From Waterburya sp. (GTDB lineage: Bacteria; Cyanobacteriota; Cyanobacteriia; Cyanobacteriales; Xenococcaceae), in the NCBI GenBank assembly GCA_965217895.1, contig CBDCJV010000002.1, positions 736,001 through 800,000 of the forward strand: a stretch of DNA of 64,000 nucleotides. Reading direction: 5' to 3'. This document shows positions 4,595 through 56,399 of this stretch, piece by piece (the first letter of the stretch is position 1; the number at the start of each line of letters is the position of its first letter). The notes beneath the pieces are model-generated. The model made no database searches, was not told where the DNA came from, and was given only the letters and a program-made list of their open reading frames with translations. Both the position numbers and the translations under genes were made by a program.

Positions 4595-5008
4595 TTAATC
4601 TCTATTTACTTCTGCACTCCTTACCTTCGGTTTAACTCGATGCACCTCATACCAGCCAGCTTTATCATATTTAACAACAATAGTTTTAGGGGTAAAGGTA
4701 ATCAAAAATATATCGAGAAATATTAGTCCTGGTGTCCGTCGAGATTTAACTCTTTTCCTGACTATATCCTCTTCATTGTGGGGTCGAAGCATAATTTGGA
4801 TCGCCTCAATATAAGCTTGAGGAATAGCAACGACAACTTCCCACAACACCCGTAGCCAATCATTTAACGCTTCTGGAGATGTATAGCTACGTGGCAATAG
4901 CAGCGCGATCGCCACGCCGATAATAATATTAGCCAAACTATAATCGGCAGTGAGTAAAAACCAAATTGTTAGTCGTAGTATTATATTAAGAATGGCGATC
5001 GCCTCCAT
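4595..5008 (-). CDS. mrpE: Mrp antiporter subunit E
   Basis: LITFTPKT motif; operon position. Confidence 0.8.
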   Translation of the reverse strand: MEAIAILNIILRLTIWFLLTADYSLANIIIGVAIALLLPRSYTSPEALNDWLRVLWEVVVAIPQAYIEAIQIMLRPHNEEDIVRKRVKSRRTPGLIFLDIFLITFTPKTIVVKYDKAGWYEVHRVKPKVRSAEVNRD

Positions 5009-6465
5009 ACTATCCAGAAAAGTAAAACTAACGTTAGTGCCATGAACCCCATCAAATGGTCGAATTGCTCAAAATCACGGGGTATTTTGATTACTAGTTT
5101 TTTGAAGATTAAAAAATAAGCCAACCAACCTAAAGCAATAGTGGTTAAAGGTTTAATTGTATTTTGTAAGCTATAGGCTTGATAGTAAAAAACATTGGCA
5201 CCAATTAATCCCCCTAGTAAAACTATCATCGCCCACCAAAACCCAGGTTGGATCTTCTTCTGCGCCCGTTCATGTCCCCCAGCCTCTCCGTTTTCTAGTT
5301 GCCTTCCGTGTGGCAGAAAAATAAATTTAGCAAAGGAAATTGCCGTTCCCAGTGCAGCAAGATTCATGCCAATCACCTGCCAGGGTAAGAGATTTTTGCT
5401 AGTTAAGACTTTTGCCCCAAAACCAGACAGTAAAGGAAATCCAGAAATTGAAAAACTAGCGATCGCTAAAGCCAGCCAAATCTTATTGTCGATAGGTTGC
5501 TGTTGCAGTTGTTTAAAGTTGCGACTAGGTAAAACCCCCGCAATTAAAAACAATGCAGACTTGACTAAACCGTGAGTTAAGGCATAAAAACCACCTACAA
5601 CTGGCGCAGCAAGGACAAAACCTAACTGAGAAATAGTGTGAAACGCTAACATCCGCTTGGTATCTTTTTCCAAAACTGCAAAACCTACTCCTAAAAGTGC
5701 TGTAGCCACGCCAAAAAACCTGACAATAGGATCGATTTCTGCCAACAGCAGCGCGCAACGTACTAAGGGGAAGACACCCGCTTTAACTACTACTCCCGAA
5801 AGCATTGCCGAGACAGGACTTTCTGATTCGGAATGAGTTAAGGGCAACCACAAGCCTGAAACAAAAATACCGCCTTTAACTAATAGTCCGAGAAAAATTA
5901 GCGCAACTGCTTCTGGGGGAGAACCACGCAAACCTGCATAATTAAAAGAATGATGTGCCTGATATATCAGCACTGCCCCCACCAAATAAAACAGCATGGC
6001 TACATTGCTGACGAAAAGATAGCGCAATCCTACCCAAATCGATCTGTCAGTGCGAGGATAAGCAATTAGCAGAAAGGATGCAATACTAATTACTTCTAGT
6101 GCCACATATAAACTAATAAAATCGGCACAGATAAAAGTAGCGTTAACGCTGCCATGCAGAATAACTAGCTGCGTATAGAAGAATGCCGTTTTACTGCTTT
6201 GCCAACAGTAAAGAATAACTGCTGCTGTCACCAGTGCATTAGTTAAAATAAAAAAACCGCTTAATCGATCGACGATTAAAGTAACGCCAAAATTATTTAG
6301 TAACTGTATATTTAAAGGCGAGCCGAGCAAAAATATCACCACGGCGTAAGCAGTCGAAACTAGAGCAATTCCTAATGCTAAAAACCGATCCAGTCTAGGA
6401 AATAGATAAATAGCAAAGCCGATAAAAAATGGTAAAGCTAGCCAGGCGATCATTATGTCGCTCAT
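4981..6465 (-). CDS. mrpD: Mrp antiporter subunit D (NuoL/M/N-like)
   Basis: LYVALEV, WLPLTHSES, SAMLSGVVVKAG, KRMLAFHTISQLG motifs. Confidence 0.85.
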   Translation of the reverse strand: MSDIMIAWLALPFFIGFAIYLFPRLDRFLALGIALVSTAYAVVIFLLGSPLNIQLLNNFGVTLIVDRLSGFFILTNALVTAAVILYCWQSSKTAFFYTQLVILHGSVNATFICADFISLYVALEVISIASFLLIAYPRTDRSIWVGLRYLFVSNVAMLFYLVGAVLIYQAHHSFNYAGLRGSPPEAVALIFLGLLVKGGIFVSGLWLPLTHSESESPVSAMLSGVVVKAGVFPLVRCALLLAEIDPIVRFFGVATALLGVGFAVLEKDTKRMLAFHTISQLGFVLAAPVVGGFYALTHGLVKSALFLIAGVLPSRNFKQLQQQPIDNKIWLALAIASFSISGFPLLSGFGAKVLTSKNLLPWQVIGMNLAALGTAISFAKFIFLPHGRQLENGEAGGHERAQKKIQPGFWWAMIVLLGGLIGANVFYYQAYSLQNTIKPLTTIALGWLAYFLIFKKLVIKIPRDFEQFDHLMGFMALTLVLLFWIVWRRSPFLI

Positions 6466-6797
6466 GGCGTATTATTCTCTTCGATCGCACTAGTTTCTAG
6501 AGTCGGATTATCTTTTGCCAACTTCATTACTCCCACCAGCATTAAAGCCTGAATCGAAAAGCCAATCACAATTGCCGTTAAAATAACCGCCTGGGGAACA
6601 GGATCGGCATAAGCAATATTATTTTTATTGCTCACGATGGGCGTAAACAAACCATCCCTTGATGCTACAAGCACATAATAGGCAATGACCCCCGTACTCA
6701 TAATGTCCATCGAGATGATTTTCATAACTAGACTTTGTTTAAAGATAATGCCAAAAAATCCACATAACATAGTGGCTAAAATACAAGCTTCTAACAT
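6462..6797 (-). CDS. mrpC: Mrp antiporter subunit C
   Basis: ADPVPQAVILTAIVIGF motif. Confidence 0.9.
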   Translation of the reverse strand: MLEACILATMLCGFFGIIFKQSLVMKIISMDIMSTGVIAYYVLVASRDGLFTPIVSNKNNIAYADPVPQAVILTAIVIGFSIQALMLVGVMKLAKDNPTLETSAIEENNTP

Positions 6798-6827
6798 TTT
6801 CCCATCACCAATAAAAAACGATTAATA

Positions 6828-7040
6828 TCAAACGGCATTTTTAATTAAAAATAACATCGGTAAAGTCAAGGCAATACGAAAGACAAATCTAGAGGCAAAT
6901 TTCAATGCTTTTTGATTAGAGGTATCTATGTTTTTGGAACTAAATTCGCTTATGTTGGGCAACAAAAAAACCGCTGCAAAAACATAGACAGTAAAACAAA
7001 ACCAAACTAAGGTATTTCGATCTGAAACTAAATAATTCAT
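6828..7040 (-). CDS. Small hypothetical membrane protein
   Basis: 70-aa ORF with two hydrophobic segments, co-oriented upstream of mrpC. Confidence 0.4.
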   Translation of the reverse strand: MNYLVSDRNTLVWFCFTVYVFAAVFLLPNISEFSSKNIDTSNQKALKFASRFVFRIALTLPMLFLIKNAV

Positions 7041-7279
7041 AATGCCTGTTAAAATTTATAGATTAAAATCTATTAAAAACAAAATCTCATAGTAAATATA
7101 CTATACATATCGGTAGAAAAATACAACCATAGTTATATTTGAGTTGTTAATTTTTTAGTTGATAATTTCCTTATGCGAAACGGTATCCGTGATAGACATC
7201 TTTAAAAGTTAGTCTAATGTAGATAGAGAGATAGCAAATTAGCTATACTCCTCATTCCTCATCCCTCATCTCTTAAACT

Positions 7280-8263
7280 GTGTCTATTATTGCCGTCGAA
7301 AACCTCAGTAAAATATACCCTGTAGCGATAAAAAAGCCAGGACTCAAGGGAACTTTAACCCACTTTTTTCGCCGTACCTATCGCCAAATCAAAGCCGTAC
7401 AAAATGTATCTTTCCAGATTCAGCCAGGGGAAGTGGTCGGATTTTTGGGTGCTAATGGTGCAGGCAAAACTACCACTTTAAAGATGCTGACGGGTTTAAT
7501 TCACCCTTCTGAGGGGGAGGTAATTGTAGCAGATCATATTCCTTTTCGCCGTCAGCCTGAATTTTTACACAAAACCAGCCTAGTAATGGGACAAAAGCAG
7601 CAACTACTTTGGGACTTACCTGCTTTGGATTCTTTACGCATCAATGCTGCTGTTTACAATATTCCCGACAAGATTTTTAAACAGCGTCTGGGTGAATTGG
7701 CAACTATGTTAGACGTTACTGATAAGCTCAATCAGCCAGTGCGAAAGCTTTCTTTAGGAGAAAGAATGAAGGCTGAGTTGTTAGCTGCTTTGCTACATCA
7801 TCCCCAGGTATTGTTTCTCGATGAGCCGACTTTGGGTTTAGACGTTAATGCTCAAGCAGCAGTCAGAAAATTTCTGCAAGAATATAATCAACGCTATGGA
7901 GCAACAATTTTGCTGACTAGCCACTACATGGCAGATATTACGGCATTGTGCGATCGCGTTTTGTTAATTCATCAAGGACAATTGATCTACGACGGCTTAC
8001 TTGATGGTTTACTTGATCGTTTTGCTCCTTATCGTCAGGTAAAAGTGGTATTGGCACAGCCAGTCTCAAAGACAAAATTAAAGGAATTTGGCGAGATTGA
8101 ATCTATTCAAGGACAAGAAGTCAAATTTTTAATCCCTAGAGAAAAACTAACCTCCACTATTTCGCGGATTTTGGCTCAATTACAAATACAAGATTTAAAT
8201 GTCAACGATCCACCAGTTGAAGAAATTATTGGTCGTTTATTTCAAGCAGGAAAAGTTGCTTGA
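7280..8263 (+). CDS. ABC-2 type transporter ATP-binding protein
   Basis: Walker A GANGAGKTT, LSLGE signature, LFLDEPT. Confidence 0.9.
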   Translation: MSIIAVENLSKIYPVAIKKPGLKGTLTHFFRRTYRQIKAVQNVSFQIQPGEVVGFLGANGAGKTTTLKMLTGLIHPSEGEVIVADHIPFRRQPEFLHKTSLVMGQKQQLLWDLPALDSLRINAAVYNIPDKIFKQRLGELATMLDVTDKLNQPVRKLSLGERMKAELLAALLHHPQVLFLDEPTLGLDVNAQAAVRKFLQEYNQRYGATILLTSHYMADITALCDRVLLIHQGQLIYDGLLDGLLDRFAPYRQVKVVLAQPVSKTKLKEFGEIESIQGQEVKFLIPREKLTSTISRILAQLQIQDLNVNDPPVEEIIGRLFQAGKVA

Positions 8264-44701: not shown

Positions 44702-44890
44702 CTAATTGGCACGAGAACGAGAACTTGATTGTGAGCTACTACTAGAGCTGCTGTTGGTCACGCTTACCGAAATATTCTGTTCGACCCTATTTTGATTGTC
44801 GGCAGAAGTTGCAGCACTGCTGGTTGCTTCGGCAACAGCTTTGCCGTCGGAGGAAACAATCTTTTGCTTAATAACTCTGTATTTAGTCAT
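44702..44890 (-). CDS. Ser-rich 62-aa peptide without a GG leader
   Basis: Co-oriented directly downstream of the glycosyltransferase; poly-Ser tail. Confidence 0.65.
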   Translation of the reverse strand: MTKYRVIKQKIVSSDGKAVAEATSSAATSADNQNRVEQNISVSVTNSSSSSSSQSSSRSRAN

Positions 44891-44946
44891 GGTTTAGTTT
44901 TGAATAACAACAATTGAGTGATGGATATAAACTTGAATTTTTTTAT

Positions 44947-47900
44947 TTAAGCAGTTTCTTGACTAATCGCCCTGTCTCGATAATTAAGTAGACTACGAGC
45001 TATATTAACTAGAATACTTGCTTCTGGATCGGACTCAACATTCAACAAAGCTAGCTTGTGTAACAGAGTGTTAGTCTGTTGTAACCAGAGTGATAGCTGA
45101 GAAATAGCTTCGGGTGAATTATCTATTTTAAGAGCTTCTTTAATTAAACATAAAGCCCCTGCAAAATTGCCAATTTTAAGAGGAATATTAGCGCGATTTA
45201 AACACCAGTCAAAGTGAAAAGCGCGAGATCTGGCTGTTATTTCTGCTCGATGCTCAGGAGGTAGATAGCTTGCAGAAATTTCAATGGCGCGACGATGAGC
45301 CACTCCCGAAGATCCATTCATATTTTCAGCTACAGTGATGCTGTTGGCTTGTTCTCGATAGTGAGCTAAGATTCCAGGCTCATACCACCAGTCATAAAAA
45401 GTTGCTACCCGCTTATAAAATTCCCAATCGCAAGTATAGAGTAAATCTAGCTTATAGCCTCCCAGCTTTTCATAAGCAGTCCGCCGAATAACTAACGAGG
45501 GTGGACTAAGGGTGCAAGAAACTCCAATGCGTAAGATCCAGTCGGCAACAATACCACGATGATTTCCTAAGTCATGTTGCTGAGAGAAGACAACTTGACG
45601 GGACTCATTGATGTTTTCATAACCAGTAAAAGCTGCGCCAACTGATTCTGGACTAGTTACCAAACTTGCTTTAAGTCGAGCGTAAAACCCTGGCAGAACA
45701 TAATCGTCATGATGCAGCAAATGAATCCACTGACCCCGACAGAGGGATACTGCCGTATTCCAATTTTCTGGTAATGATACTGTTTTGGGAAATCGATAGT
45801 AACGAATAATTCCCTTACCTAAATAGTCGGGAATCTGCCATTGAGGTGGGTTGCTGCCGTTATCGAGAACGATAATTTCCATTTCCTCCGTCCACTGAGC
45901 AAGAACACTAGCAAGACATTCTGGGAAATATTCGGGGCGGTTGACAACAGGAATTACAACGCTCCAGAACGGTCTTTTGGCTTCGGGTTTAGGTACAGGA
46001 GAAATTGCTGGAAACTGATAGTCGCCAATAGTCACCTCGCCTTGAGGAATTTCAGGGACACTAAAGCTATCAACAAATGTGGCGACTTCTGCTGAGGATT
46101 CTATAGCTTGAGCATAGTCAGAATTAATTAGCTTTAATCCGAGTTTAAAGTTTAACTTAGCTTGGCTCAAGTCTCCTAGATCTTGATAGATCTGACCCAG
46201 GTTATAGTAGGCAGATCCGCAATCAGGGTCTAACTGTAAAACTCTTTGATAGCAAGCAAGTGACTTAGTTAACTTTCTCTGTTGTTGCAGCACTAGACCT
46301 AGATGATAGTGGGCATCTACCAGTTCGGGCTGCATTAAAATTGCCTGACGGTAATAAGTGGCAGCAGTTTCCCAGTCTTGGACTTGGTGGCGACTTAAGC
46401 CTAATTTGTAGTTCAGCTTGGCATAATTGATCTGTTTTTGAGCAGATAGCTTACCTTGAGCATAAAGTGCATTACCCCAGTTAACATCGGCTGCGATACA
46501 TTCTGGCTCAATCTCTAAAGCTTGCTGATAACAGGCTGCTGCTGCCGACCAGTTGCCCTGCTGTTGCAGTACATAACCTAAATTGTTGCATATAGGTGCA
46601 GAATCTGGTCGCAGTTTCAAAGCCTGTCGATAAGCCAGTTCTGCTGATTGATATTGACCTTGACTTTGATGCAAATTACCTAAACCAAACCAAGCCTGGA
46701 GAAATTTGGGCTGTACTTTTACCGCAGCACTGAGATATTTTTCTGCTGCTTCTGGGCGATCGCTTTTTGCCAATATGCCCAGTCTATATAAGGCTTCAGG
46801 ATGTTGAGGTTGAGCTGTTATAACTTGCAGATATTCCTGTCGTGCTGCTTCTAAACGATTTGCTCGTTGATGCTGTACACCTAATTGAAAAGCCTGGGCG
46901 ACTTTAGCATCATCAAATCTTCTTGGTTTGTCAACTATCTGAAACAGAAAATCTTCTAACGCTCTGATTGGCATTAAATCTCCATAGAGCTTATGTTTGT
47001 TGAGGGCAATTCGTTGAGCAATATGCCGACGATAACCAGCATCCTGAGCCAAACGCACCGCAATCTGGATATATTCATCTTTGCTTTGAGCGATGGTTTC
47101 TTCTACACCGATCATTTTGAGGAATGCTAGAGTATGTCGCCCCCGCATTTGCTGAGCAGCAAGAGTGACTATCGGTAAATTATGAGTCATACATTCTAGG
47201 GTCGTATTGCAGCCAGACCAACCAATGTTATCTAAAAATATATCGGCGATCGCGCCTACGCCCACAAAGCTTTCTGCATATAAACGGGGCAAGAATATGC
47301 AGTAGTCTCGATCATCTAAATCAAACTGTTCAAAAGCATCTGCCAATCGCTGACGGAATATACTGGTGGCAAATTCGCTTTCGAGCTTGATAAAGACAAA
47401 TTTGGCATGACCTAATTTTTGGGCAAGACGCGGAAAAACATCATCATGCTGCGGTAAATATTTAAACAAAGATTGACAGCACCAAAACATGATTTCGTTG
47501 TTTTGTACACCAAGATCTTCTTTCCTAACTGCTTCAGGTCGAATTGATATAGGCTGATAACAGATACCCAGGTTGGGCAATCTAATTAACTTTTCGGTGT
47601 AGTGTGACTGAGCAGCTTCTGGCTCCATTAGATCGCTGCTGAGGTAATAATCAATTGTGGGCATTCCACTGGTGTTTGGATGCCCCCAAGAGGTGATTTG
47701 AATAGGAGCTAGTCTTAAGCAACCTAATTGAACCGTCAGGGAGTTCATGCCAAATTCAGGAAAAATCAGCACCTGTAAATTGTCTGAGGCGATTTTCTCT
47801 GCCCATCGATCTACGCAGAAATGATGGTGTTCAAATCGATCGAAGGCTTTAGCCGCGATCGCCGTTTCGCGATCGCTAATGTTGCCCGTATAGTAACCAA

Positions 47901-48465
47901 ATAACTCAAATTCACTACGGTCTATATTTTCAATCCAGCCTTTTAAGGGAATTTTCCAGACTGAATGGTGATGAAAAAAACCAGAAACAAAACCGATGCG
48001 AATTTTTTGCTCCGCAGGCAATTTCGACGGTGGCAGTGCTTGACACCATTGAGGATAGCGACTTGCCATCAAGCGACAAATCATTTCTCCGTAAGTCCGC
48101 TGTAGGTCTTTGTCGTTCAGCCCCTGATAAGGCAATAAAAAAGGCTGAGCTGAACCTGCTGCCTCTCCTGCCTTGGCTCGCTCTTGTTCGCTGGCTGCTT
48201 GGTAACTATCAGCTAAGTCGGCTAAACAGCGTTGATAATTATTGCGTCTTAAGTTGATTTCTTCTCGATTAGCATAGATTGTGGGCAGTTGAGCCATGGT
48301 TATGCCAAATTTAGCTAGATGATAGTTCGGCTTTAGAGCGATCGCTTTCTGATAAGTGGCGATCGCATCAACCATCTTGCCCTGCTGGGTCAATAAATTT
48401 CCTAAATCGTTATATGTTTCTGCTGATTTAGGTTCAGTGTTTGAAGGTTCTTGAAAAGTTGTCAT
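44947..48465 (-). CDS. TPR - GT41 (O-GlcNAc transferase/SPINDLY-like) - TPR - GT2 fusion protein
   Basis: GT41 motifs RIGFVSGFFHHHSV, RLAPIQITSWGHPNTSG, DIFLD; multiple TPRs; GT2 motifs SVVIPVVNR and LLHHDD; start moved to ATG 48465. Confidence 0.85.
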   Translation of the reverse strand: MTTFQEPSNTEPKSAETYNDLGNLLTQQGKMVDAIATYQKAIALKPNYHLAKFGITMAQLPTIYANREEINLRRNNYQRCLADLADSYQAASEQERAKAGEAAGSAQPFLLPYQGLNDKDLQRTYGEMICRLMASRYPQWCQALPPSKLPAEQKIRIGFVSGFFHHHSVWKIPLKGWIENIDRSEFELFGYYTGNISDRETAIAAKAFDRFEHHHFCVDRWAEKIASDNLQVLIFPEFGMNSLTVQLGCLRLAPIQITSWGHPNTSGMPTIDYYLSSDLMEPEAAQSHYTEKLIRLPNLGICYQPISIRPEAVRKEDLGVQNNEIMFWCCQSLFKYLPQHDDVFPRLAQKLGHAKFVFIKLESEFATSIFRQRLADAFEQFDLDDRDYCIFLPRLYAESFVGVGAIADIFLDNIGWSGCNTTLECMTHNLPIVTLAAQQMRGRHTLAFLKMIGVEETIAQSKDEYIQIAVRLAQDAGYRRHIAQRIALNKHKLYGDLMPIRALEDFLFQIVDKPRRFDDAKVAQAFQLGVQHQRANRLEAARQEYLQVITAQPQHPEALYRLGILAKSDRPEAAEKYLSAAVKVQPKFLQAWFGLGNLHQSQGQYQSAELAYRQALKLRPDSAPICNNLGYVLQQQGNWSAAAACYQQALEIEPECIAADVNWGNALYAQGKLSAQKQINYAKLNYKLGLSRHQVQDWETAATYYRQAILMQPELVDAHYHLGLVLQQQRKLTKSLACYQRVLQLDPDCGSAYYNLGQIYQDLGDLSQAKLNFKLGLKLINSDYAQAIESSAEVATFVDSFSVPEIPQGEVTIGDYQFPAISPVPKPEAKRPFWSVVIPVVNRPEYFPECLASVLAQWTEEMEIIVLDNGSNPPQWQIPDYLGKGIIRYYRFPKTVSLPENWNTAVSLCRGQWIHLLHHDDYVLPGFYARLKASLVTSPESVGAAFTGYENINESRQVVFSQQHDLGNHRGIVADWILRIGVSCTLSPPSLVIRRTAYEKLGGYKLDLLYTCDWEFYKRVATFYDWWYEPGILAHYREQANSITVAENMNGSSGVAHRRAIEISASYLPPEHRAEITARSRAFHFDWCLNRANIPLKIGNFAGALCLIKEALKIDNSPEAISQLSLWLQQTNTLLHKLALLNVESDPEASILVNIARSLLNYRDRAISQETA

Positions 48466-48866
48466 GACCCGTTTTAGATTAGGTATAAAAATGCTTGAAA
48501 ACAAATTTATTGCAACTTAAAAACAAAAATATTACGACTGAATAATGTTTTATACTTATTGAATGTTAGTCATTCCGTAGCTAAACCGAGGGATAACTTG
48601 ATTAAAATAGATTATTTTAAATTGCGCTTTTAACGGTTTTAATAATCTCAAACTGCAAAATTCTACTTGATATTTTCAATCAAATATCAGGAAATTAGGG
48701 CAATTGCCAAAAGTCCCTTAATGGAGCAGTTTTCAAGATCTAAAACTCATATAACTGTTATTAGGTGAATAGGGGGAATTTTTGAGCAAGCCCTAAATAA
48801 ACTCTCTTAAATCTACTGTTCCCATGAACATCGATCGACAATCAACAGTGCTACCGCTTAGACCGC

Positions 48867-49187
48867 TTAGACTATAGAAATACTGGTACTTTGATCTGTA
48901 GCCACGGTGCTATAGCGATCTAGACCGTATACTGTTCCATATCCTACGCCATAACCCGCAGTATAGCCAAAACCAGGATAGCCTTGATTAATCAAGTTAA
49001 CTCCAGTTGTGGCTATAGCTTGGCTGTAATCGCCCGATCCTACTGCTGATGCAGAAGCATAAACTGCGCCATCCGTTGCACTAGTACTTGTTGTCGCCGA
49101 AGCTGATGCACCTCCTCTAATAGCAAAATCGCTTTTTCGCTCCTCTTCCTTAAAAGAGTTAATGAATTCTAAATCATGAATAAACAT
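48867..49187 (-). CDS. Double-glycine-leader precursor peptide 1
   Basis: Leader MFIHDLEFINSFKEEERKSDFAIRGG, then an 80-aa Ser/Thr/Ala/Gly/Tyr-rich core. Confidence 0.8.
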   Translation of the reverse strand: MFIHDLEFINSFKEEERKSDFAIRGGASASATTSTSATDGAVYASASAVGSGDYSQAIATTGVNLINQGYPGFGYTAGYGVGYGTVYGLDRYSTVATDQSTSISIV

Positions 49188-49255
49188 AGCTAAATAGCCT
49201 CAAGAAAACTTTAAAATTAGTTTGAAATTGAAAGGAATCTAACAATTAACAAATA

Positions 49256-49362
49256 GGTATTGCTGAAGGTTACGAACATCCCTCAATATGATTTCACACA
49301 TCAAAGTAAGTTCAATATTTAGACATGACCAACGACCAGTCTAATTCTCCTTCAACAACACC
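49256..49362. mobile_element. Possible degenerate MITE
   Basis: GGTATTGCTGAAGG versus reverse complement GGTGTTGTTGAAGG (2 mismatches). Confidence 0.4.
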
Positions 49363-49585
49363 AAAAATTAATATTTTGCTAATTTATTAGACTTAATAGC
49401 TAACAACAACATCTTGATTACAAAACATATTGTTATTATTTGTTTTGCTCTGAGACTTACGTTGATATTTTAATAGCAAAGGAAATAATTGATCGAACTA
49501 TGATAAACTATGTCAATATTTCAAGTCAAAACTATTATAAAATTATCACCGTTTCTTCGTGTTGCTAGCCTAGCCTACTATACTT

Positions 49586-49816
49586 TTAGTAGTAGTAACC
49601 GTAATTTGAAGCACTAGCACTAGAGCTAGAACCAGCAATACTAACACCAGCATTGGCATCTGCTACAGTATAGGTATTGGTGTAAGCACTAGTGTATTGT
49701 CCATAAGCTTGTGATTGACCATTAGCATAAGCATTTGCTGAAGTACCATAGTAGTAACCACCTTGTACTTCTGAAGTGTCAACTGATTCGATGTACTGTA
49801 AGTCAGAAATAATCAT
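49586..49816 (-). CDS. Double-glycine-leader precursor peptide 2 (start moved to ATG 49816)
   Basis: GAGG RBS; leader MIISDLQYIESVDTSEVQGG; 56-aa core YYYG...GYYY. Confidence 0.82.
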   Translation of the reverse strand: MIISDLQYIESVDTSEVQGGYYYGTSANAYANGQSQAYGQYTSAYTNTYTVADANAGVSIAGSSSSASASNYGYYY

Positions 49817-50085
49817 CTTTTTTTCCTCGTGTTTGTTCAATATGTTTGAATAATTGTTTATGGAAACTATGTTTCGTTTCCATGTATCTAACATAACTTG
49901 TTCAAAATTTGATATGTTGCCAAATTGGCATTTATATTTGGTTAAAACCAATAATCATATTTATATAGAGCATTAAATCTTAAAAATAGTAGAAAATGTG
50001 GGCTGTATAACTAATTGCTCAGTCAAAAAAATCTACTATCAAGCATAAGCCAATTATTTTAGACAAGTATCTCAGCCAAGGAACA

Positions 50086-50826
50086 ATGGTCAAATTTGAA
50101 AGTTTAGAAATTGCCACAGCCGAAATTGAGGAACATCTCAAACAAGAGTTAAAGCTCAAGCAAATTTGTTGTGAAATTTTGCACCAAAAGATTGTAGCAG
50201 AAGCTGCCTCCTCCAAAAATATTGTCGTCACCGAGCAAGAAATTGAGGCTGAAGCCAATCAAATTCGCTCTTTGCTGCGACTGGAAAAGGCATCTGACAC
50301 CCTGGCTTGGCTAAAGGACAATCTGCTCAATCCAGATGGTTGGGAAATAGCAATTAACAATCATCTTCTAGCGAATAAACTAGCCAAAAATCTGTTTGAT
50401 TCCCAGGTAGAAGCTCATTTTGCCCAAAATCGCCTAAATTTTGATCGCTTTGTACTTTACCAGCTTATAGTTCCTTATGAAAAGCTGGCTCAAGAACTTT
50501 TTTATCAAATAGAGGAAGAAGAAATAAGCTTTTATCAAGCAGCTCATCTTTATGATGTTGATGAGCAACGTCGATACGTATGTGGTTATGAGGGAAAAGT
50601 ACATCGCTGGAATTATCCACCAGACATCGCTGCTGCTATATTTACAACTCCAATTGCCATCGGCGAAATAATTGGACCTATTAAATCAGAACAAGGCTAT
50701 CATTTGTTCAAAATTGAAGACTATATTCCCGCCCAACTAACGCCTAGAATACGCCAGGAGATTATCGACCGGCTCTTTAGCCAATGGCTAGACAGTGAAT
50801 TGAACTATATGATTCATCGAAATTAA
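50086..50826 (+). CDS. PpiC/parvulin-type peptidylprolyl isomerase-like protein
   Basis: LAQELFYQIEEEEISFYQAAHLY, GEIIGPIKSEQGYHLF; usual companion of cyanobacterial peptidase-transporter loci. Confidence 0.8.
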   Translation: MVKFESLEIATAEIEEHLKQELKLKQICCEILHQKIVAEAASSKNIVVTEQEIEAEANQIRSLLRLEKASDTLAWLKDNLLNPDGWEIAINNHLLANKLAKNLFDSQVEAHFAQNRLNFDRFVLYQLIVPYEKLAQELFYQIEEEEISFYQAAHLYDVDEQRRYVCGYEGKVHRWNYPPDIAAAIFTTPIAIGEIIGPIKSEQGYHLFKIEDYIPAQLTPRIRQEIIDRLFSQWLDSELNYMIHRN

Positions 50827-50862
50827 GTATCATCCCAGTAAATATCGCAGTAAATGATTAGC

Positions 50863-50967
50863 TAGGGGCGAATGGTGAGGCAGTTGCGGTGGGTCGAGAC
50901 CCCGCGTCGCCGTCAGGCGCAAGGGAATGCTTTCCGATGTCGAACCCGAAGGGCTGTTTGCCCATAC
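50863..50967. repeat. GC-rich composite REP-like element
   Basis: Begins TAGGGGCGAATGGT like the other REP copies and ends TTTGCCCATAC, with nested GC-rich inserts. Confidence 0.5.
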
Positions 50968-51053
50968 AGTACTAAGTGTCATAAAAAAGAGTGCGTATTA
51001 CTTCTGCTATATAAATTTGTTGTTAGAGGTAAAACTTAAAATTTCAGGCTGAA

Positions 51054-54000
51054 TTAAAGACTTAATTGCTGTTGGGCTAGCTGGTAGTAGAGTCCTTGTT
51101 GGGAGATTAATTCATTATGAGTTCCTTGTTCAACTATCAAACCTCGATCTAGGACGACAATACAATCAGCATTACGTACCGTGGAAAGACGATGGGCAAT
51201 AATTAAGGTAGTACGCTGGCGAGAAAGACGAGCTAGATTATCTTGAAAACGCCGTTCCGATTCCGTATCGAGGGAACTAGTCGCTTCGTCTAGAATTAAA
51301 ATTGGCGGATCGCCTAAAAATGCCCGCGCGATCGCAATTCTTTGTCGCTGTCCACCAGAAAGACTATCACCCCGTTCTCCAACTTTGGTGTTGTATCCCA
51401 AAGGCATGGACTGAATAAAGCTATGAGCCTCTGCTAGTTTCGCCGTGGCGATCGCCTGTTCTAGGGTAAATTCCGAGCGATAGAGAGTAATATTTTCTAA
51501 GATTGTGCCTGAGAATAAAAAGCAGTCTTGGGGGACAACTCCCATTTGCGATCGCAAAGATTTAAGGCAAACGTGCTTGAGGTTGTGTCCATCGATGGCG
51601 ACTTGACCACTAAGAGGATGATACAAGCCTTGAATAAGCTTAACTAAGGTGCTTTTTCCCGAACCGCTACGACCGACAATAGCTACAGTTTGACCTGCTG
51701 CAACTTCTAGGGAAATATTTTGGAGAATGTTGGCCTCTTCTTCATTCTCGTAGCGAAAGGTGACATTATTCAACTGCAAGCTTCCCTGTAGCTTGGGTAA
51801 CATCAGTTTTGAAGCTCGCCCAGAGTCTTCTGATTTGGTTTCAAAGACATCATTTAATCGTTCTACAGAAATTAACACCTCCTGTAACTCATCCCACACC
51901 CCGACCAAGGCTAATACAGGACTAATGATATAGCCTTTCATCATATTAAAAGCGACATACTGACCAATAGTTAACTGCTCTTGTATGACCAAGGTTGCAC
52001 CGTACCAAAGCAGCACTGTTCCACCAATGGAATTGATCAGTCCACTCAGCAGTCCTAAATTAATTGCTAGCTTTTGACCTTTGAAGCGTAGATTAAGCTC
52101 ACGAGTTAAGAGATCTTCCCAACGCCAGCGTAAATCTTGCTCGGCGGTAACGGCTTTAACGGTAGATATTCCCGTCATCATTTCTACCAAAGAAGAATTT
52201 TCATCCGCAGCCGCGTTAAATCTTAACCGTGAAATTTTCCTTAATAGTGGAGTCGCTGCTAGGGTTAAAAGGACAATTGGCGGAATCAAAAGTAAAATTA
52301 GAGCCGTTAGCTGCCAGTTGTAATAGAGCATCAACCCTAAATAAATAAATCCCGTTAAGAAATCCAACCAAGAGACTAAAAGATTTTGAACTAAAAACTG
52401 TTGAATTTTCTGATTTTCCTGAACCCGAGTGATGATATCCCCCACACGACGAGATTCAAAAAACTTGAGGGGCAGGTTCAAAGCATGGTTCACAAACCCG
52501 CCAATCATGGTTAAATCTAAACGGTTTGCCAAATAGGTGAGTAAATAACTGCGTATTGCTGACAAGCCAATGCCCAACGAGCCAAACAATAAAATTCCTG
52601 TTACCAGAACATTTAAAGTTGACTGGCTTTTATTAGTCACCACCTGATCGAGAATTATCTGGGTGAACAGAGGAGAAATTAGACCCAGAACTTGAATCAG
52701 TATAGATGCAACAATAACTATAATAGCGATCGAGCGATAGGGCAGTAACAGCTTAAAGAATCTGCTCAAAGAGCGTTTTTCTTCAGGGGCTTCGTATAAA
52801 TTTTCAGTAGGCTCTAACAGCAGGGCATATCCTGTCCAGCTAATTTCAAACTCGGAGGTAGATAGCTCAAATTTTCCCCTGCCAGGATCGGCAACCAGAA
52901 TTTTATCGTTTTTGATTCGGTAAACAACCACATAGTGATCGCCTTCCCAGTGGGCAATCCAGGGATTATTTTGCTCGGCGATTCGACTCAGGCTGGCTCT
53001 TACGGGTCGAGCATAATAGCCGATGTCTTCTGCTGCTTTGGCTAAACTTTTGAGAGATGACCCAGAACGTCCAATGCCGATAATCTCGCGCAAATAGTTG
53101 ATGCTCAAACGCTTGCCCCAATATTGGCTAATCATTGCCAGGCAAGCTGCACCACAGTCAGAAGAACTTTGCTGTTCGATAAAAGGATAGGTTTTCCATC
53201 GACCACGACGCTTAATCGGTCTGGGATAATCGACTTCTTGAACTTCATCATCTATGTTTTGAGTCTCAGCCGAACTTGCTTGAAGGGAATTCGCTATGGG
53301 AGTAATACTAAGATTAGGAGTCTTGACGTTAACCAGAGCGCTAACGCTAGGAGCATTTTTAGCTTTGACTAATGGTGTTTGGCTAGATTGAGCCTCAGGA
53401 TTCTTTGACCAAGCCAAAACCAGTTCAGGAAAAAGCTTCGAGAAAGCCTGCCAATTCTTTTGAGGTAAATAATAGATTAATAGGTCAGTCTGAGCTATCC
53501 AATTATGATTGGCGGACTCTGCATCTGCCCAAGAATCTCCTGTTTTGACTTTTTGGTTTTTAATTTGACCATAACGTAACCAGAAACGGGCAGTTTGCTT
53601 TTCTGCTGTTAAGTATTCCCCAGCTTTAAACTTGCCTGCTTCAAGATAGGGCAGTAATTTTTTGAGGCGATGGCTGGACAAGGAGCGTAGCTGCGTCAGC
53701 GTTTTTAAAAAGATTAACTTTTGCTGCTGCTGAGTCATATGTTGCCATTTTTTGTTCAGCTCAGGTATTTTTTGCAGATATGGAGTTAGTTTTGCTAAGG
53801 AGATCCGAGCAATCTGAACTTTACTAGCACCTACTACCTTATAAGGAAGAGCGATAGGACTCCAAAGAGATTCACCGCCGAAGGTTGCCCCTTCTGCCAT
53901 TAAGTTGGTCGAAACTTCTCTGTGTTTATGGACATCAAAGCTTAGTAATCGCGATCGCCCTGCACAGATAAGATAAAAATATTGTGAGTCTAGTTTTTGG

Positions 54001-54197
54001 TTGTTTGATTGAGCCGTGAAACCAGACTGAGCCATTAAAACATCGCCCAATTGAAACTCAAGTATTTCAAATTGCTGGCTCAGAAGTTTGATCGACTCTA
54101 CTTTATCTGAGGTAAATTGACCCTGCTTCAACAACCACGATAAGACCGTAAAGCGATTTTCCGTAGGAAATGTCGATTTTATTTCTGTGCTATCCAT
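51054..54197 (-). CDS. HetC-like peptidase-containing ABC transporter (cNMP-like, C39 peptidase, TM and ATPase domains)
   Basis: QQSSSDCGAACL (catalytic Cys), HYVVV, VADP; GRSGSGKST; LSGGQRQR; LDEATS. Confidence 0.92.
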   Translation of the reverse strand: MDSTEIKSTFPTENRFTVLSWLLKQGQFTSDKVESIKLLSQQFEILEFQLGDVLMAQSGFTAQSNNQKLDSQYFYLICAGRSRLLSFDVHKHREVSTNLMAEGATFGGESLWSPIALPYKVVGASKVQIARISLAKLTPYLQKIPELNKKWQHMTQQQQKLIFLKTLTQLRSLSSHRLKKLLPYLEAGKFKAGEYLTAEKQTARFWLRYGQIKNQKVKTGDSWADAESANHNWIAQTDLLIYYLPQKNWQAFSKLFPELVLAWSKNPEAQSSQTPLVKAKNAPSVSALVNVKTPNLSITPIANSLQASSAETQNIDDEVQEVDYPRPIKRRGRWKTYPFIEQQSSSDCGAACLAMISQYWGKRLSINYLREIIGIGRSGSSLKSLAKAAEDIGYYARPVRASLSRIAEQNNPWIAHWEGDHYVVVYRIKNDKILVADPGRGKFELSTSEFEISWTGYALLLEPTENLYEAPEEKRSLSRFFKLLLPYRSIAIIVIVASILIQVLGLISPLFTQIILDQVVTNKSQSTLNVLVTGILLFGSLGIGLSAIRSYLLTYLANRLDLTMIGGFVNHALNLPLKFFESRRVGDIITRVQENQKIQQFLVQNLLVSWLDFLTGFIYLGLMLYYNWQLTALILLLIPPIVLLTLAATPLLRKISRLRFNAAADENSSLVEMMTGISTVKAVTAEQDLRWRWEDLLTRELNLRFKGQKLAINLGLLSGLINSIGGTVLLWYGATLVIQEQLTIGQYVAFNMMKGYIISPVLALVGVWDELQEVLISVERLNDVFETKSEDSGRASKLMLPKLQGSLQLNNVTFRYENEEEANILQNISLEVAAGQTVAIVGRSGSGKSTLVKLIQGLYHPLSGQVAIDGHNLKHVCLKSLRSQMGVVPQDCFLFSGTILENITLYRSEFTLEQAIATAKLAEAHSFIQSMPLGYNTKVGERGDSLSGGQRQRIAIARAFLGDPPILILDEATSSLDTESERRFQDNLARLSRQRTTLIIAHRLSTVRNADCIVVLDRGLIVEQGTHNELISQQGLYYQLAQQQLSL

Positions 54198-54227
54198 TTT
54201 TGCTTTACTTCGTAAAAAGTCATCAAA

Positions 54228-54635
54228 TTAGCTTTTGCTGAATTTATGCAGGATGAAATTAGACATTTCCTGAAACGAAAATACTTTTCTTCCACCTCTA
54301 ATACTTTCTGACTGGCGGTCAACCTCTTCCAAATAGGTCAAATCGCGGAGCTTGGTCAAAGATTTATGGGTTGATTGGGGCGATCGAGACTGGCTACGAT
54401 GAGCCATGACATTATCTTTGACTAACTGAGGTTTCGGTTCTCGATTAACTTTCATCAATCGGTTATAGGTTCGGTAGGGAATATAGTGCAACGGGTTGTA
54501 GCCTGAAAAGCGTAGAATCAACAGGCACGCCCAAGAATATTTTCCTGAGATAATCGCTTCAACTATTTGGTTGAACTGATCCTCAGTCATCACTTTTTCA
54601 AACTGGGAATTAGCTGAATTAAGATGGTTATACAT
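54228..54635 (-). CDS. HetP-family protein
   Basis: QFNQIVEAIISGKYSWACLLILRFSGYNPLHYIPYRTYNRL; start ATG 54635 or TTG 54650. Confidence 0.88.
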   Translation of the reverse strand: MYNHLNSANSQFEKVMTEDQFNQIVEAIISGKYSWACLLILRFSGYNPLHYIPYRTYNRLMKVNREPKPQLVKDNVMAHRSQSRSPQSTHKSLTKLRDLTYLEEVDRQSESIRGGRKVFSFQEMSNFILHKFSKS

Positions 54636-54779
54636 AAATGTTTCCCTCAAATAAATACTTCTCGGTTTTCTAAATCGCTATTAGCCAAGTATTGAGATAA
54701 TTTTCTCTATGCTCCCGAATAATTCTAATAAATTCTTATGGCTGTTTAATATGTTCTTTGACAAGATTTTATGCACTAC

Positions 54780-56399
54780 CTATAAATCAATGCCGTCCTG
54801 TTCCAGCTTTTTAATTGGATCGAGCAAAACATCAATAATTCGCTCTTGGCGAATCACAATATCAGCCGTAGCTGTTTGACCTGGTTTGAACAAAATTTTC
54901 TTGAGATCGTTAGTGACATAGTTGCGCTCAAGCTCTATTTTCACTTGGTAAACTGCACCTAATTGTTCGTCGCTTTTCGCGTCTGGGGAAACGGAAATTA
55001 CTTTGCCAGGAATTGCACCATAGTCTTGATAGGAATAGGCATCAAACTTGACCTGTGCGGACATTCCTTTTTTGACAAAGCCAGCTTCGCGATCGGGTAA
55101 GGCAGCCGAAAGCACCAACGGAGAGCCTTTTGGCGCGATTTCGGCTACAGTTTCTCCCGACTGAACTACTTTTCCTGTGTTAGTTACGTTAAACGATAAA
55201 ACAGTTCCCGCCACCGGAGATCTTAAAGCTCTTTTTTCCAGTAAGCTTGCTGCACCTGCTAGTTGATTTTTAGTTTCGGCTATTTTAGCTTCAGTTTGAC
55301 TAATTTCTAGCTTAATCTGCTCTGCTTTCTGTTGTGCTTCTAGCTCAATTCTCTGTTTCTCTGCCTTTTTTTGAGCTAATTCTGCTTGAAGTTGCTCAAC
55401 TTGTTTTTGTCCTGAAACTAGATCTCCTTGGCTTTGAGTAATACTTGCCTCCATTTGTCGCAAAGCTTGTTCAGACTGAAATATTTGTTCGCTAATATTA
55501 CTAATTCCTTGGAGCTTGTTGTCAGTCAACTGTTGCTGAGCCTGACGATAAGTCTGTTGAGCCTGAAAATAAACTTCTTGAGAGATTGCCCCTTGTTCTA
55601 CTAAAGGCTTGAGTCTTGCCAGTCGCTGTTGATGATCCTTTAGCTCTTCCTTGATTTGAGCCAGTTTTTCTTGGTCTAGTGCTGATAGATTCTGGACATT
55701 TTTTTGTCTGCTAGACTGAGCTGTCAACTCAGACTGCCTTTGGGCAAGTAAATCTGTCGTCACTTCGGTTTCGGCGATCGCCGAGTCTATGGCTGTTTGT
55801 TGACCCTCAACTTCACTTTGGGCAATTTGTTGCTGAGTTTTACTCTCTAATGCAACTTTTTCTAACAAGTTGCGTTTTTGATTAACCTCCAGTTGATAAG
55901 AGTCAACGAGATTTTTGAGTCGCTCAACTTCCCTAATCTGCTGGTCTGAATCCAATCTGGCGATTAATTGTCCCGCCTTGACCTCTTGTCCTTCTTTGAC
56001 GGCGATATAGCTCACCTTGGCAGATTCAATTGACTCAATTTTATAGGCTTCACCTTTCGGCACTAATTTGCCTTGCGCCTTCCCCACCTTATCAATTTCT
56101 CCAAACCATGCCCAAAGAGCAAAAAATAGGCAAAATACTATTCCTCCAACAGTAAGTCTTAGGGGTAAATTGGATGGAGGCTCATCCAACAACGACTGCA
56201 TGGTCGGCGACCATTTAACCATTGCTCCTTGATTACTGGCTACTACATCATTCTCTCGAGCGAGGTTGGATGTATCAGCCTGAGCAGGTTCAATTTTAGC
56301 TATTTGTCTGATTGATAGCTCTGAATCTGAAGACTCTCTATGGTTGTATTGATGGGAAATGTACCGTTTTAAATTAGCAACCTTGGGCAACATTTTCAT
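54780..56399 (-). CDS. HlyD family type I secretion membrane fusion protein
   Basis: TM, GKLVPKG, VKEGQEVKAGQ, long coiled coil, LRSPVAG, KFDAYSYQDYG. Confidence 0.92.
   Translation of the reverse strand: MKMLPKVANLKRYISHQYNHRESSDSELSIRQIAKIEPAQADTSNLARENDVVASNQGAMVKWSPTMQSLLDEPPSNLPLRLTVGGIVFCLFFALWAWFGEIDKVGKAQGKLVPKGEAYKIESIESAKVSYIAVKEGQEVKAGQLIARLDSDQQIREVERLKNLVDSYQLEVNQKRNLLEKVALESKTQQQIAQSEVEGQQTAIDSAIAETEVTTDLLAQRQSELTAQSSRQKNVQNLSALDQEKLAQIKEELKDHQQRLARLKPLVEQGAISQEVYFQAQQTYRQAQQQLTDNKLQGISNISEQIFQSEQALRQMEASITQSQGDLVSGQKQVEQLQAELAQKKAEKQRIELEAQQKAEQIKLEISQTEAKIAETKNQLAGAASLLEKRALRSPVAGTVLSFNVTNTGKVVQSGETVAEIAPKGSPLVLSAALPDREAGFVKKGMSAQVKFDAYSYQDYGAIPGKVISVSPDAKSDEQLGAVYQVKIELERNYVTNDLKKILFKPGQTATADIVIRQERIIDVLLDPIKKLEQDGIDL

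Follow-up and report, generated by a model that had tools for sequence, protein, structure and literature searches.

The cyanobacterium Waterburya sp. carries, in the 64,000-nucleotide stretch of DNA analyzed here (assembly GCA_965217895.1, contig CBDCJV010000002.1, positions 736,001 to 800,000; below, the window), a cluster of genes for the export of peptides with double-glycine (GG) leaders, which includes a glycosyltransferase (GT) made of tetratricopeptide repeats (TPR), a GT41 domain, further TPR, and a GT2 domain. A preliminary description of this DNA had proposed that the enzyme glycosylates the peptides and had suggested looking for its synteny with DLx(Y/F)..GG precursors in other genomes. 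We found such precursors within 5 kb of the GT in 18 of the 22 loci of its clade, compared with 0 of 17 loci of distant paralogs. With this clade-specific synteny, the proposed functional link between the GT and the GG peptides is well supported by comparative genomics. Sequence comparison slightly favors the view that the TPR-GT41-TPR-GT2 enzyme glycosylates the exported peptides, and we attach less confidence to the details beyond that step.

All coordinates are positions within the window, where the cluster spans 44702-56399. Every gene that had been described (HlyD, HetP-like protein, transporter, isomerase, two GG precursors, and dual GT) was present where it had been placed:

54780..56399, minus strand: HlyD-family membrane fusion (adaptor) protein, 539 amino acids (aa) (TIGR01843, 3e-71, 240.6 bits against a cutoff of 208.65; PF13437)
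54228..54650, minus strand: HetP-family protein, 140 aa (NF037966, 1.2e-34, 117.7 bits against a cutoff of 45)
51054..54197, minus strand: HetC-like peptidase-containing ABC transporter (PCAT), 1047 aa (PF03412, 7.4e-41; PF00664, 3.6e-46; PF00005, 2.4e-37)
50086..50826, plus strand: parvulin-type peptidyl-prolyl isomerase (PPIase), 246 aa (PF00639, 7.9e-10)
49586..49816, minus strand: precursor preA, 76 aa (double-glycine leader MIISDLQYIESVDTSEVQGG and a 56-aa core)
48867..49187, minus strand: precursor preB, 106 aa (double-glycine leader MFIHDLEFINSFKEEERKSDFAIRGG and an 80-aa core)
44947..48504, minus strand: TPR-GT41-TPR-GT2 fusion, 1185 aa from the listed TTG (PF13844, 85.9 bits; PF00535, 69.9 bits; many TPR families)
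44702..44890, minus strand: s62, a small open reading frame (ORF) of 62 aa with a poly-Ser tail, conserved in relatives

The order of transcription on the minus strand is HlyD, HetP-like protein, PCAT, preA, preB, GT, and s62; only the PPIase gene is on the plus strand. The neighbors of the cluster are LeuS, an OmpR-type regulator, and an AraC regulator, genes with housekeeping or unrelated functions. The numbers of promoter-like sites (24, with 16.7 +/- 4.1 expected) and terminator-like sites (8, with 5.1 +/- 2.1 expected) were uninformative on operon structure. A search for RNA sequencing runs listed just two runs of DNA type, both from one study.

Linkage of the glycosyltransferase to double-glycine precursors

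Searching genome contigs with the whole GT, we obtained 21 loci, 17 of them cyanobacterial or uncultured and 4 from Nitrospirota (loci are designated L and genomes G). Precursors were detected by a regular expression combined with ORF reading, in flanks of at most 10 kb per locus; the MIISDINYLE genes of L060 were caught by reading alone. An ORF with the leader M(I/V)I(S/C)DLxYLE...GG lay no more than 5 kb from the GT41 gene in 13 of the 17 loci, mostly directly upstream and in the same orientation. Locus L010 repeats the order of the window gene for gene, and ten Nostoc loci and one from Iningainema have, in this order, a HetC-like transporter, HlyD, PPIase, a precursor, and TPR-GT41-TPR. The four Nitrospirota loci (L013, L015, L024, and L029) form a sister group with tandem TPR-GT41 genes, up to four, and without GG precursors.

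We also searched 401 genomes, sampled evenly from the class to which the window belongs, with the GT41 domain alone. Matches with E <=1e-40 occurred in 121 genomes, and besides the window only G224, G212, and G021 reached an identity of at least 55% (all others, at most 46%). We took the 20-kb contexts of these three close orthologs and of the 17 next-best paralog loci. GG precursors adjoined GT41 in all three orthologs: L061 has four precursors, L062 has two between GT41 and TPR-GT2, and L060 has the two MIISDINYLE genes. All four genomes of the sample that carry the GT41 clade have precursors. Beside the distant paralogs (about 38 to 46% identity), no GG precursor was found in any of the 17 loci, and only one of these loci (L077) has a PCAT and HlyD. 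Type IV pilin ORFs were present within 10 kb in 6 of the 17, a parallel to Synechococcus elongatus, whose ogt adjoins pilA and is reported to be needed for PilA glycosylation (10.1101/2021.07.06.449578).

A metagenome scan added L084, in which a GT with 70% identity has three precursors directly upstream (L085 to L087, with contigs of at most 2.9 kb and identities of at most 45%, were left out). The tally of 18 of 22 loci thus comprises 13 of 17 contig loci, 3 of 3 sample loci, 1 of 1 metagenome loci, and the window. These represent about seven lineages, namely, the window/L010/L084 group, the ten Nostoc loci, Iningainema, G224, G212, G021, and an Oscillatoriales metagenome-assembled genome (MAG). 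In a quick maximum-likelihood tree of 52 GT41 domains, all 18 precursor-linked rows fell into one clade of 22 rows (SH-aLRT, 100), and none of the 30 rows outside it was linked. In L012 and L084, the precursors adjoin the GT and the exporter is not in the fetched flanks, so the GT goes with the peptides and not with the pump. In Nostoc, L012, L025, and L062, GT41 and TPR-GT2 are encoded by two adjacent genes; the window, L010, L026, and L084 have a single fused gene. Of the 21 clade loci other than the window, 18 contain a GT2 homolog with at least 46% identity. This split-or-fused arrangement supports the idea that both domains work together.

The enzyme, the precursors, and the exporter

The GT is divided as follows:

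46930..48087, minus strand: GT41 catalytic region, about residues 140-525 (PF13844, 85.9 bits against a cutoff of 25)
46105..46917, minus strand: central TPR array, about residues 530-800 (N-terminal to GT2, as in the stand-alone TPR-GT2 of Nostoc)
45205..45972, minus strand: GT2 (GT-A fold) domain, about residues 845-1100 (PF00535; DNGS881 and HHDD931)

A start at ATG 48465 (MTTFQEP...) is equally possible; the homolog in L084 begins MTTFQEE. In a comparison with PDB sequences, the GT41 part was most similar to the protein O-fucosyltransferase SPINDLY of Arabidopsis (SPY; 7y4i/8dtf, E 1e-44, query residues 9-489), followed by bacterial and human O-GlcNAc transferases (OGTs), with N-glycosyltransferase (NGT) far behind. 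The roles of H495/S496, the essential K665, and the donor-site residues of SPY have been described (PMC9715652). H495/S496 corresponds to H180/S181 of the window GT and K665 to K348, and all of these are invariant in 15 clade members; at the GDP-fucose donor site of SPY, Y744 is replaced by W, T748 by N, and H728 by F. We take K665 to be the counterpart of K842, the phosphate-binding Lys of human OGT. To our knowledge, the characterized GT41 members (OGT, SPY, and NGT) are protein glycosyltransferases.

The structural model of the GT2 domain had a mean pLDDT of 66, with the acceptor half poorly modeled. It matched generic GT-A enzymes (K4CP, TarS/TarP, SpsA, and WrtF) with glycan or polyol acceptors, and these generic fold matches do not settle the type of acceptor. 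There was no SunS-like chain among the seven PDB matches with E <=0.01 or among the Foldseek matches listed for this model. By eye, and without a topology or signal-peptide predictor, we recognized neither a signal peptide nor a membrane segment in the GT sequence, which would fit action in the cytoplasm before the C39 domain removes the leader. Structure prediction for GT residues 1-810 together with preA gave a score of 0.02, against a mark of 0.32, and we used it neither for nor against an interaction.

The ATG at 49816, not the TTG farther upstream with which the listed ORF opens, is almost certainly the start of preA: MIISDL stands at the beginning of all homologs, and GAGG precedes the ATG by 9 nt. 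As had been noted before, the cores are Cys free and rich in Ser and Thr: that of preA is dominated by Tyr, Ala, Ser, Gly, and Thr (0 Cys; Ser plus Thr, 27%) and that of preB by Ser, Thr, Gly, Ala, and Tyr (0 Cys; Ser plus Thr, 29%). Homologs of preA occur in L010, L080, L084, and Nostoc with the common core pattern AxAxAxAxAxG..TxTxT..SxSS, and homologs of preB were found in L010 and L080. We aligned the leaders and cores of 16 precursors, drawn from both GT-bearing and GT-less loci. The leader was invariant at M1, I3, D5, L6, and G19 and nearly so at G20, whereas the cores were variable, charge poor, and of low complexity, running from AxAxAxAxAxG through TxTxT to a Ser-rich tail. The alternating residues suggest extended beta strands. 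In S. elongatus PCC 7942, the secreted GG proteins EbfG1 to EbfG4, exported by PteB, are needed for biofilm formation, and EbfG1 to EbfG3 are amyloid (PMC12267927); with this precedent, the core patterns lend weak support to a role in fibers or matrix.

Neither the preA nor the preB core contains an N-x-S/T sequon, and we therefore ruled out NGT-like N-glycosylation as the principal reading for the window. Such sequons do occur in several Nostoc and other cores when these are read by eye. A relaxed leader pattern had 10 matches in the six frames of the 5.29-Mb genome. Three were plausible (preA, preB, and the C-terminal part of the HetP-like protein), and the other seven were spurious, lying inside unrelated frames or being very short. 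The leader motif of preA and preB is no chance pattern and within the genome is confined to this cluster. An NCBIfam search with 14 precursors and their neighbors returned no family for any GG precursor; the sole matches among those 14 that exceeded their curated cutoffs or were clearly meaningful were Nif11 (the second Nostoc precursor) and RTX families (Ca-repeat proteins).

The PCAT consists of a weak cyclic nucleotide monophosphate (cNMP)-like N-terminal domain, a C39 peptidase, a transmembrane domain, and an ATPase. The C39 domain occupies residues 337-465 (PF03412, 7.4e-41, profile positions 2-132 of 133). Its Cys, His, and Asp, already thought to be intact, lie in the motifs DCG347, HYVV421, and VADP435, which we take to be the canonical catalytic motifs of C39 peptidases. 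The ATPase has GSGKST845 (Walker A), LSGGQ946 (signature), and LILDEA967 (Walker B). The cNMP-binding domain (residues 72-141) stayed below threshold (PF00027, 21.6 bits against a cutoff of 27.5). The same genome encodes two more long PCATs (G000:C2:901003-903285 and 1946680-1948815), with 47% and 38% identity to that of the window. No other ORF in the genome has a leader of this kind, so the substrates of these two PCATs must have other leaders. The PPIase, kept beside the exporter in 13 related loci, has a weak match to TIGR04500 ("peptide maturation system"; 45.6 bits, far under the cutoff of 180) and, read by eye, no obvious signal peptide.

In the HetP-like protein, the HetP domain (residues 10-69) is followed by a linker, a leader-like motif, and a 20-aa tail. 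The motif was located by the genome-wide leader-pattern scan:

54291..54350, minus strand: leader-like motif LRDLTYLEEVDRQSESIRGG within the HetP-like protein

The homolog in L082 has the motif KISDLAYLEAVSARHSKVRGG and a 7-aa tail. The motif is of the same class as the KIxDLxYLEx10GG reported in HetP-like proteins adjoining group II "bacteriocin" clusters (PMC3140520). If the PCAT cleaves there, the HetP domain would remain in the cell and only the short tail would be exported, which agrees with the working model sketched for HetC (PMC10986499).

The survey that defined those groups (Wang, Fewer & Sivonen 2011, PMC3140520) counted 145 cyanobacterial "bacteriocin" clusters, and a later survey kept its scheme (PMC4558948). 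Groups I and II are characterized by a long C39 ABC transporter, HlyD, a SurA-like rotamase, and GG precursors (PMC3140520). All of these are found together in the window, so its core of exporter, HlyD, PPIase, HetP-like protein, and precursors is of a known kind with an uncharacterized product.

The small ORF s62 has tblastn homologs of 62 to 66 aa, situated after the GT in L009 (position 12579), L010 (12340), and L011 (2708) and directly after preB in the GT-less L080 (13710). Their consensus is MTKYRVIKQKIVS.DGKA.AEATS ... poly-Ser ... R.N, without a GG leader, and three of the four contain an NQT sequon. s62 had no Pfam or NCBIfam match, and its nearest protein-atlas cluster contains cyanobacterial hypothetical proteins (score, 0.91). 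Judged by these positions, s62 is part of the cluster in both its GT-bearing and its GT-less form, and it may be another target of glycosylation.

Other neighborhoods are more elaborate. In Nostoc, TPR-GT41 is followed by a Nif11-leader precursor, a radical SAM/SPASM enzyme, an RTX Ca-repeat protein, and two TPR-GT2 genes, with an NAD-dependent epimerase/dehydratase and a sugar-type C-methyltransferase 3' of the GT2 genes (L018:9159-12449; the other nine loci are alike). These loci look like a larger composite island for glycosylation and for RiPPs (peptides made by ribosomes and modified after translation), possibly with an unusual sugar. The Oscillatoriales MAG has a JmjC/cupin protein (L012:8764-9984; PF08007, 4.6e-28) between two Asp/Asn-rich GG precursors and GT41, which may represent a peptide hydroxylase tailoring step. 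In the GT-less L083 (G321:C1, about 4656-7654, minus strand), genes for four RTX repeat proteins come immediately downstream of those for four GG precursors, PPIase, HlyD, and a HetC-like transporter, suggesting that HetC-like exporters may also serve RTX-type cargo.

Proposed mechanism and competing explanations

We envisage a pathway in which the HetC-like PCAT, working with HlyD and an outer-membrane channel encoded elsewhere, would recognize the M(I/F)IxDLx(Y/F)(I/L)...GG leaders of preA and preB. The cytoplasmic C39 domain would cut after Gly-Gly, followed by export of the Cys-free cores rich in Ser, Thr, Tyr, Ala, and Gly, and the cytoplasmic parvulin PPIase would probably serve in holding or maturation. 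The SPINDLY/OGT-like GT41 domain of the soluble GT would most likely act before export, using a nucleotide sugar to O-glycosylate Ser or Thr, possibly also Tyr, in the cores, and the GT-A (GT2) domain may add a further sugar. The cores would be extended beta-strand, fiber-forming peptides like EbfG rather than a compact antibiotic. More broadly, we put forward, tentatively and as a possibility rather than an expectation, an unrecognized class of ribosomal glycopeptides, in which a precursor-linked GT41 clade would O-glycosylate Ser/Thr-rich, beta-patterned cores in the cytoplasm, TPR-GT2 would extend the glycan, and PCAT/HlyD would export mucin-like building blocks of sheath or biofilm matrix.

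Several observations weigh against peptide glycosylation as the task of the GT. Genome G329, from the same genus, has HlyD, HetP, HetC, PPIase, preA, preB, and s62 and lacks the GT (L080, G329:C21, 12332-13850); its cluster proteins have 54 to 84% identity to those of the window, the gap from preB to s62 is about 420 bp, and the neighborhood differs, with no LeuS, OmpR-type regulator, or AraC gene nearby. A strict DNA pattern for the leader matched 28 times in 21 of the 401 genomes (none in the reversed control), and only two of these 21 (G000 and G212) carry the GT clade; the leaders of G224 and G021 are variants that escape the strict pattern. Near-identical leaders and homologous cores also occur without a GT, for example, in L083 compared with the Nostoc and L060 loci. 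It follows that clusters can do without the GT and that the leader is not peculiar to it; since homologous leaders stand in GT-less clusters, the leader serves the exporter, and any recognition by the GT must be of the core. The GT is an optional, putative tailoring module and not a core part of the export system.

The closest GT, in L009 (91% identity), lacks the first 145 or so residues and has no cluster upstream (L009:10049-12541); it begins at about residue 146 with unrelated genes upstream, and s62 and the OmpR-type regulator are conserved downstream, so that the shortening may reflect decay or misassembly of the MAG. Four clade loci in all have no precursor: L009, L025 (only a different GG-like ORF), and L011 and L026, whose flanks are too short to judge. 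RTX calcium-repeat proteins occur in 12 of the 22 clade loci, from three lineages, and in these loci the substrate could be an RTX protein. The ten Nostoc loci, being closely related, amount to roughly one observation, the tree came from a quick search only, and the donor-site differences from SPY prevent the sugar from being named.

Alternatively, the cluster could be an ordinary group I/II GG export system in a shared secretion or surface island, with the GT acting on another protein (an RTX surface protein, s62, a pilin, or the HetP-like protein). We regard this as unlikely. RTX repeat proteins adjoin the GTs in ten Nostoc loci, L026, and L060, but no RTX gene is present in the fetched regions of the window, L010, L012, L061, L062, and L084, and their presence in the GT-less L083 means that they travel with the exporter cluster and not with the GT. 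s62 starts 56 bp after the GT and has a poly-Ser tail, yet the GT-less G329 retains it, and none of the Nostoc loci was found to have it. Cyanobacterial GT41 paralogs are linked to pilins, but no clade locus has a pilin ORF. Most clusters of this kind do without a GT, which also speaks for another substrate; on the other side, L012 and L084 retain only precursors beside the GT.

That the GT is a polysaccharide or glycolipid enzyme, with TPRs for assembly, inserted by chance between preB and s62 and functionally unrelated to them, seems very unlikely. Near relatives differ cleanly by the presence or absence of the 3.6-kb GT gene, the nearest structures to the GT2 domain are GT-A enzymes that build glycans or teichoic acids, and in Nostoc, sugar-nucleotide genes (epimerase/dehydratase and C-methyltransferase) follow the GT2 genes. 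However, chance cannot explain why the same precursor family adjoins it in about seven lineages with differing gene orders. Reading the GT sequence revealed no membrane segment or signal peptide (no predictor was run), and the characterized GT41 members that we know of are protein glycosyltransferases. A third alternative is about what the product does and is in no conflict with glycosylation of the peptides: they could be antimicrobial or signaling RiPPs of the bacteriocin type, with glycosylation tuning activity or self-protection as in glycocins, instead of structural fibers. PCAT clusters with GG-leader peptides are classically bacteriocin systems and were so classed by Wang et al. (PMC3140520), the cores are hypervariable between loci, and the HetP/HetC link points to signaling. 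Nevertheless, no immunity gene is evident, the low-complexity, Cys-free, charge-poor, and beta-patterned cores are unlike known glycocins, and the GG peptides EbfG1 to EbfG3 of S. elongatus form an amyloid matrix (PMC12267927). We consider this role quite unlikely.

Relation to known systems

PteB is described in the literature as a short-type PCAT, whereas the exporter of the window is of the long, HetC-like type. The two systems are alike in that small GG-motif proteins adjoin a C39 PCAT and HlyD (PMC12267927 and PMC4997328); a glycosyltransferase was seen in the window cluster and not in the EbfG/PteB system. HetC of Anabaena (Nostoc) PCC 7120 is an active PCAT that requires its C39 and ATPase sites and whose substrate is described as unknown, and the export of HetP-derived peptides has been raised as a question (PMC10986499). 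Both HetC and the window PCAT have an N-terminal extension and adjoin a HetP-family gene, but hetC is reported to have no adjacent HlyD gene or GG precursor (PMC10986499), whereas the window has HlyD and two precursors. In addition, the HetP-like protein of the window has an internal GG leader, and its PCAT has a cNMP domain only below threshold.

HMW1C glycosylates an adhesin before its secretion. With HMW1C/NGT, SPINDLY, OGT, and S. elongatus Ogt, cytoplasmic enzymes acting on protein Ser/Thr, the window GT shares TPRs, a GT-B GT41 domain, the essential Lys, and the His-Ser pair. It differs in its fusion to TPR-GT2, its position beside GG-leader peptides, and donor-site residues partly unlike those of SPY. 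We found no GT41 enzyme acting on PCAT cargo in the open-access literature. Glycocins have disulfide-stapled helix-loop-helix cores modified by SunS-family GT2 enzymes. Like the window cluster, the SunA/SunS/SunT system combines a ribosomally made peptide bearing a double-glycine leader with its own glycosyltransferase and with export by a PCAT; in the window, by contrast, the cores have 0 Cys, the primary candidate enzyme is GT41, and no SunS-like match was listed.

The preliminary description knew of no characterized example of this combination. The exporter/precursor core had already been described (PMC3140520), and the link to the GT is what we found undescribed. The TPR-GT41/GT2 module and its clade-specific precursor linkage are not described in PMC3140520, and the term "glycosyl" is absent from that paper. 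Open-access papers and preprints yielded none that links a GT41/TPR glycosyltransferase to GG precursors, which is not proof of absence. As far as we found, then, the clade-specific attachment of GT41 and TPR-GT2 to double-glycine peptides is the new part.

Cyanobacteria have many double-glycine peptide systems, and hardly any of their products has been characterized; the best-studied one, EbfG/PteB, builds biofilm matrix. A protein glycosyltransferase that travels with GG peptides in several lineages offers a concrete maturation hypothesis for some of these peptides, and the cluster with the GT in the window genome and without it in G329 of the same genus provides a natural comparison. If the hypothesis is true, GT41 would be a new enzyme family in RiPP-type tailoring, with a bearing on sheath and biofilm biology and on the cargo of HetC-type exporters. 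The pathway would be the first GT41-dependent, RiPP-like one, and peptides that are glycosylated in the cytoplasm and then exported would join the cargo of ABC-type secretion systems.

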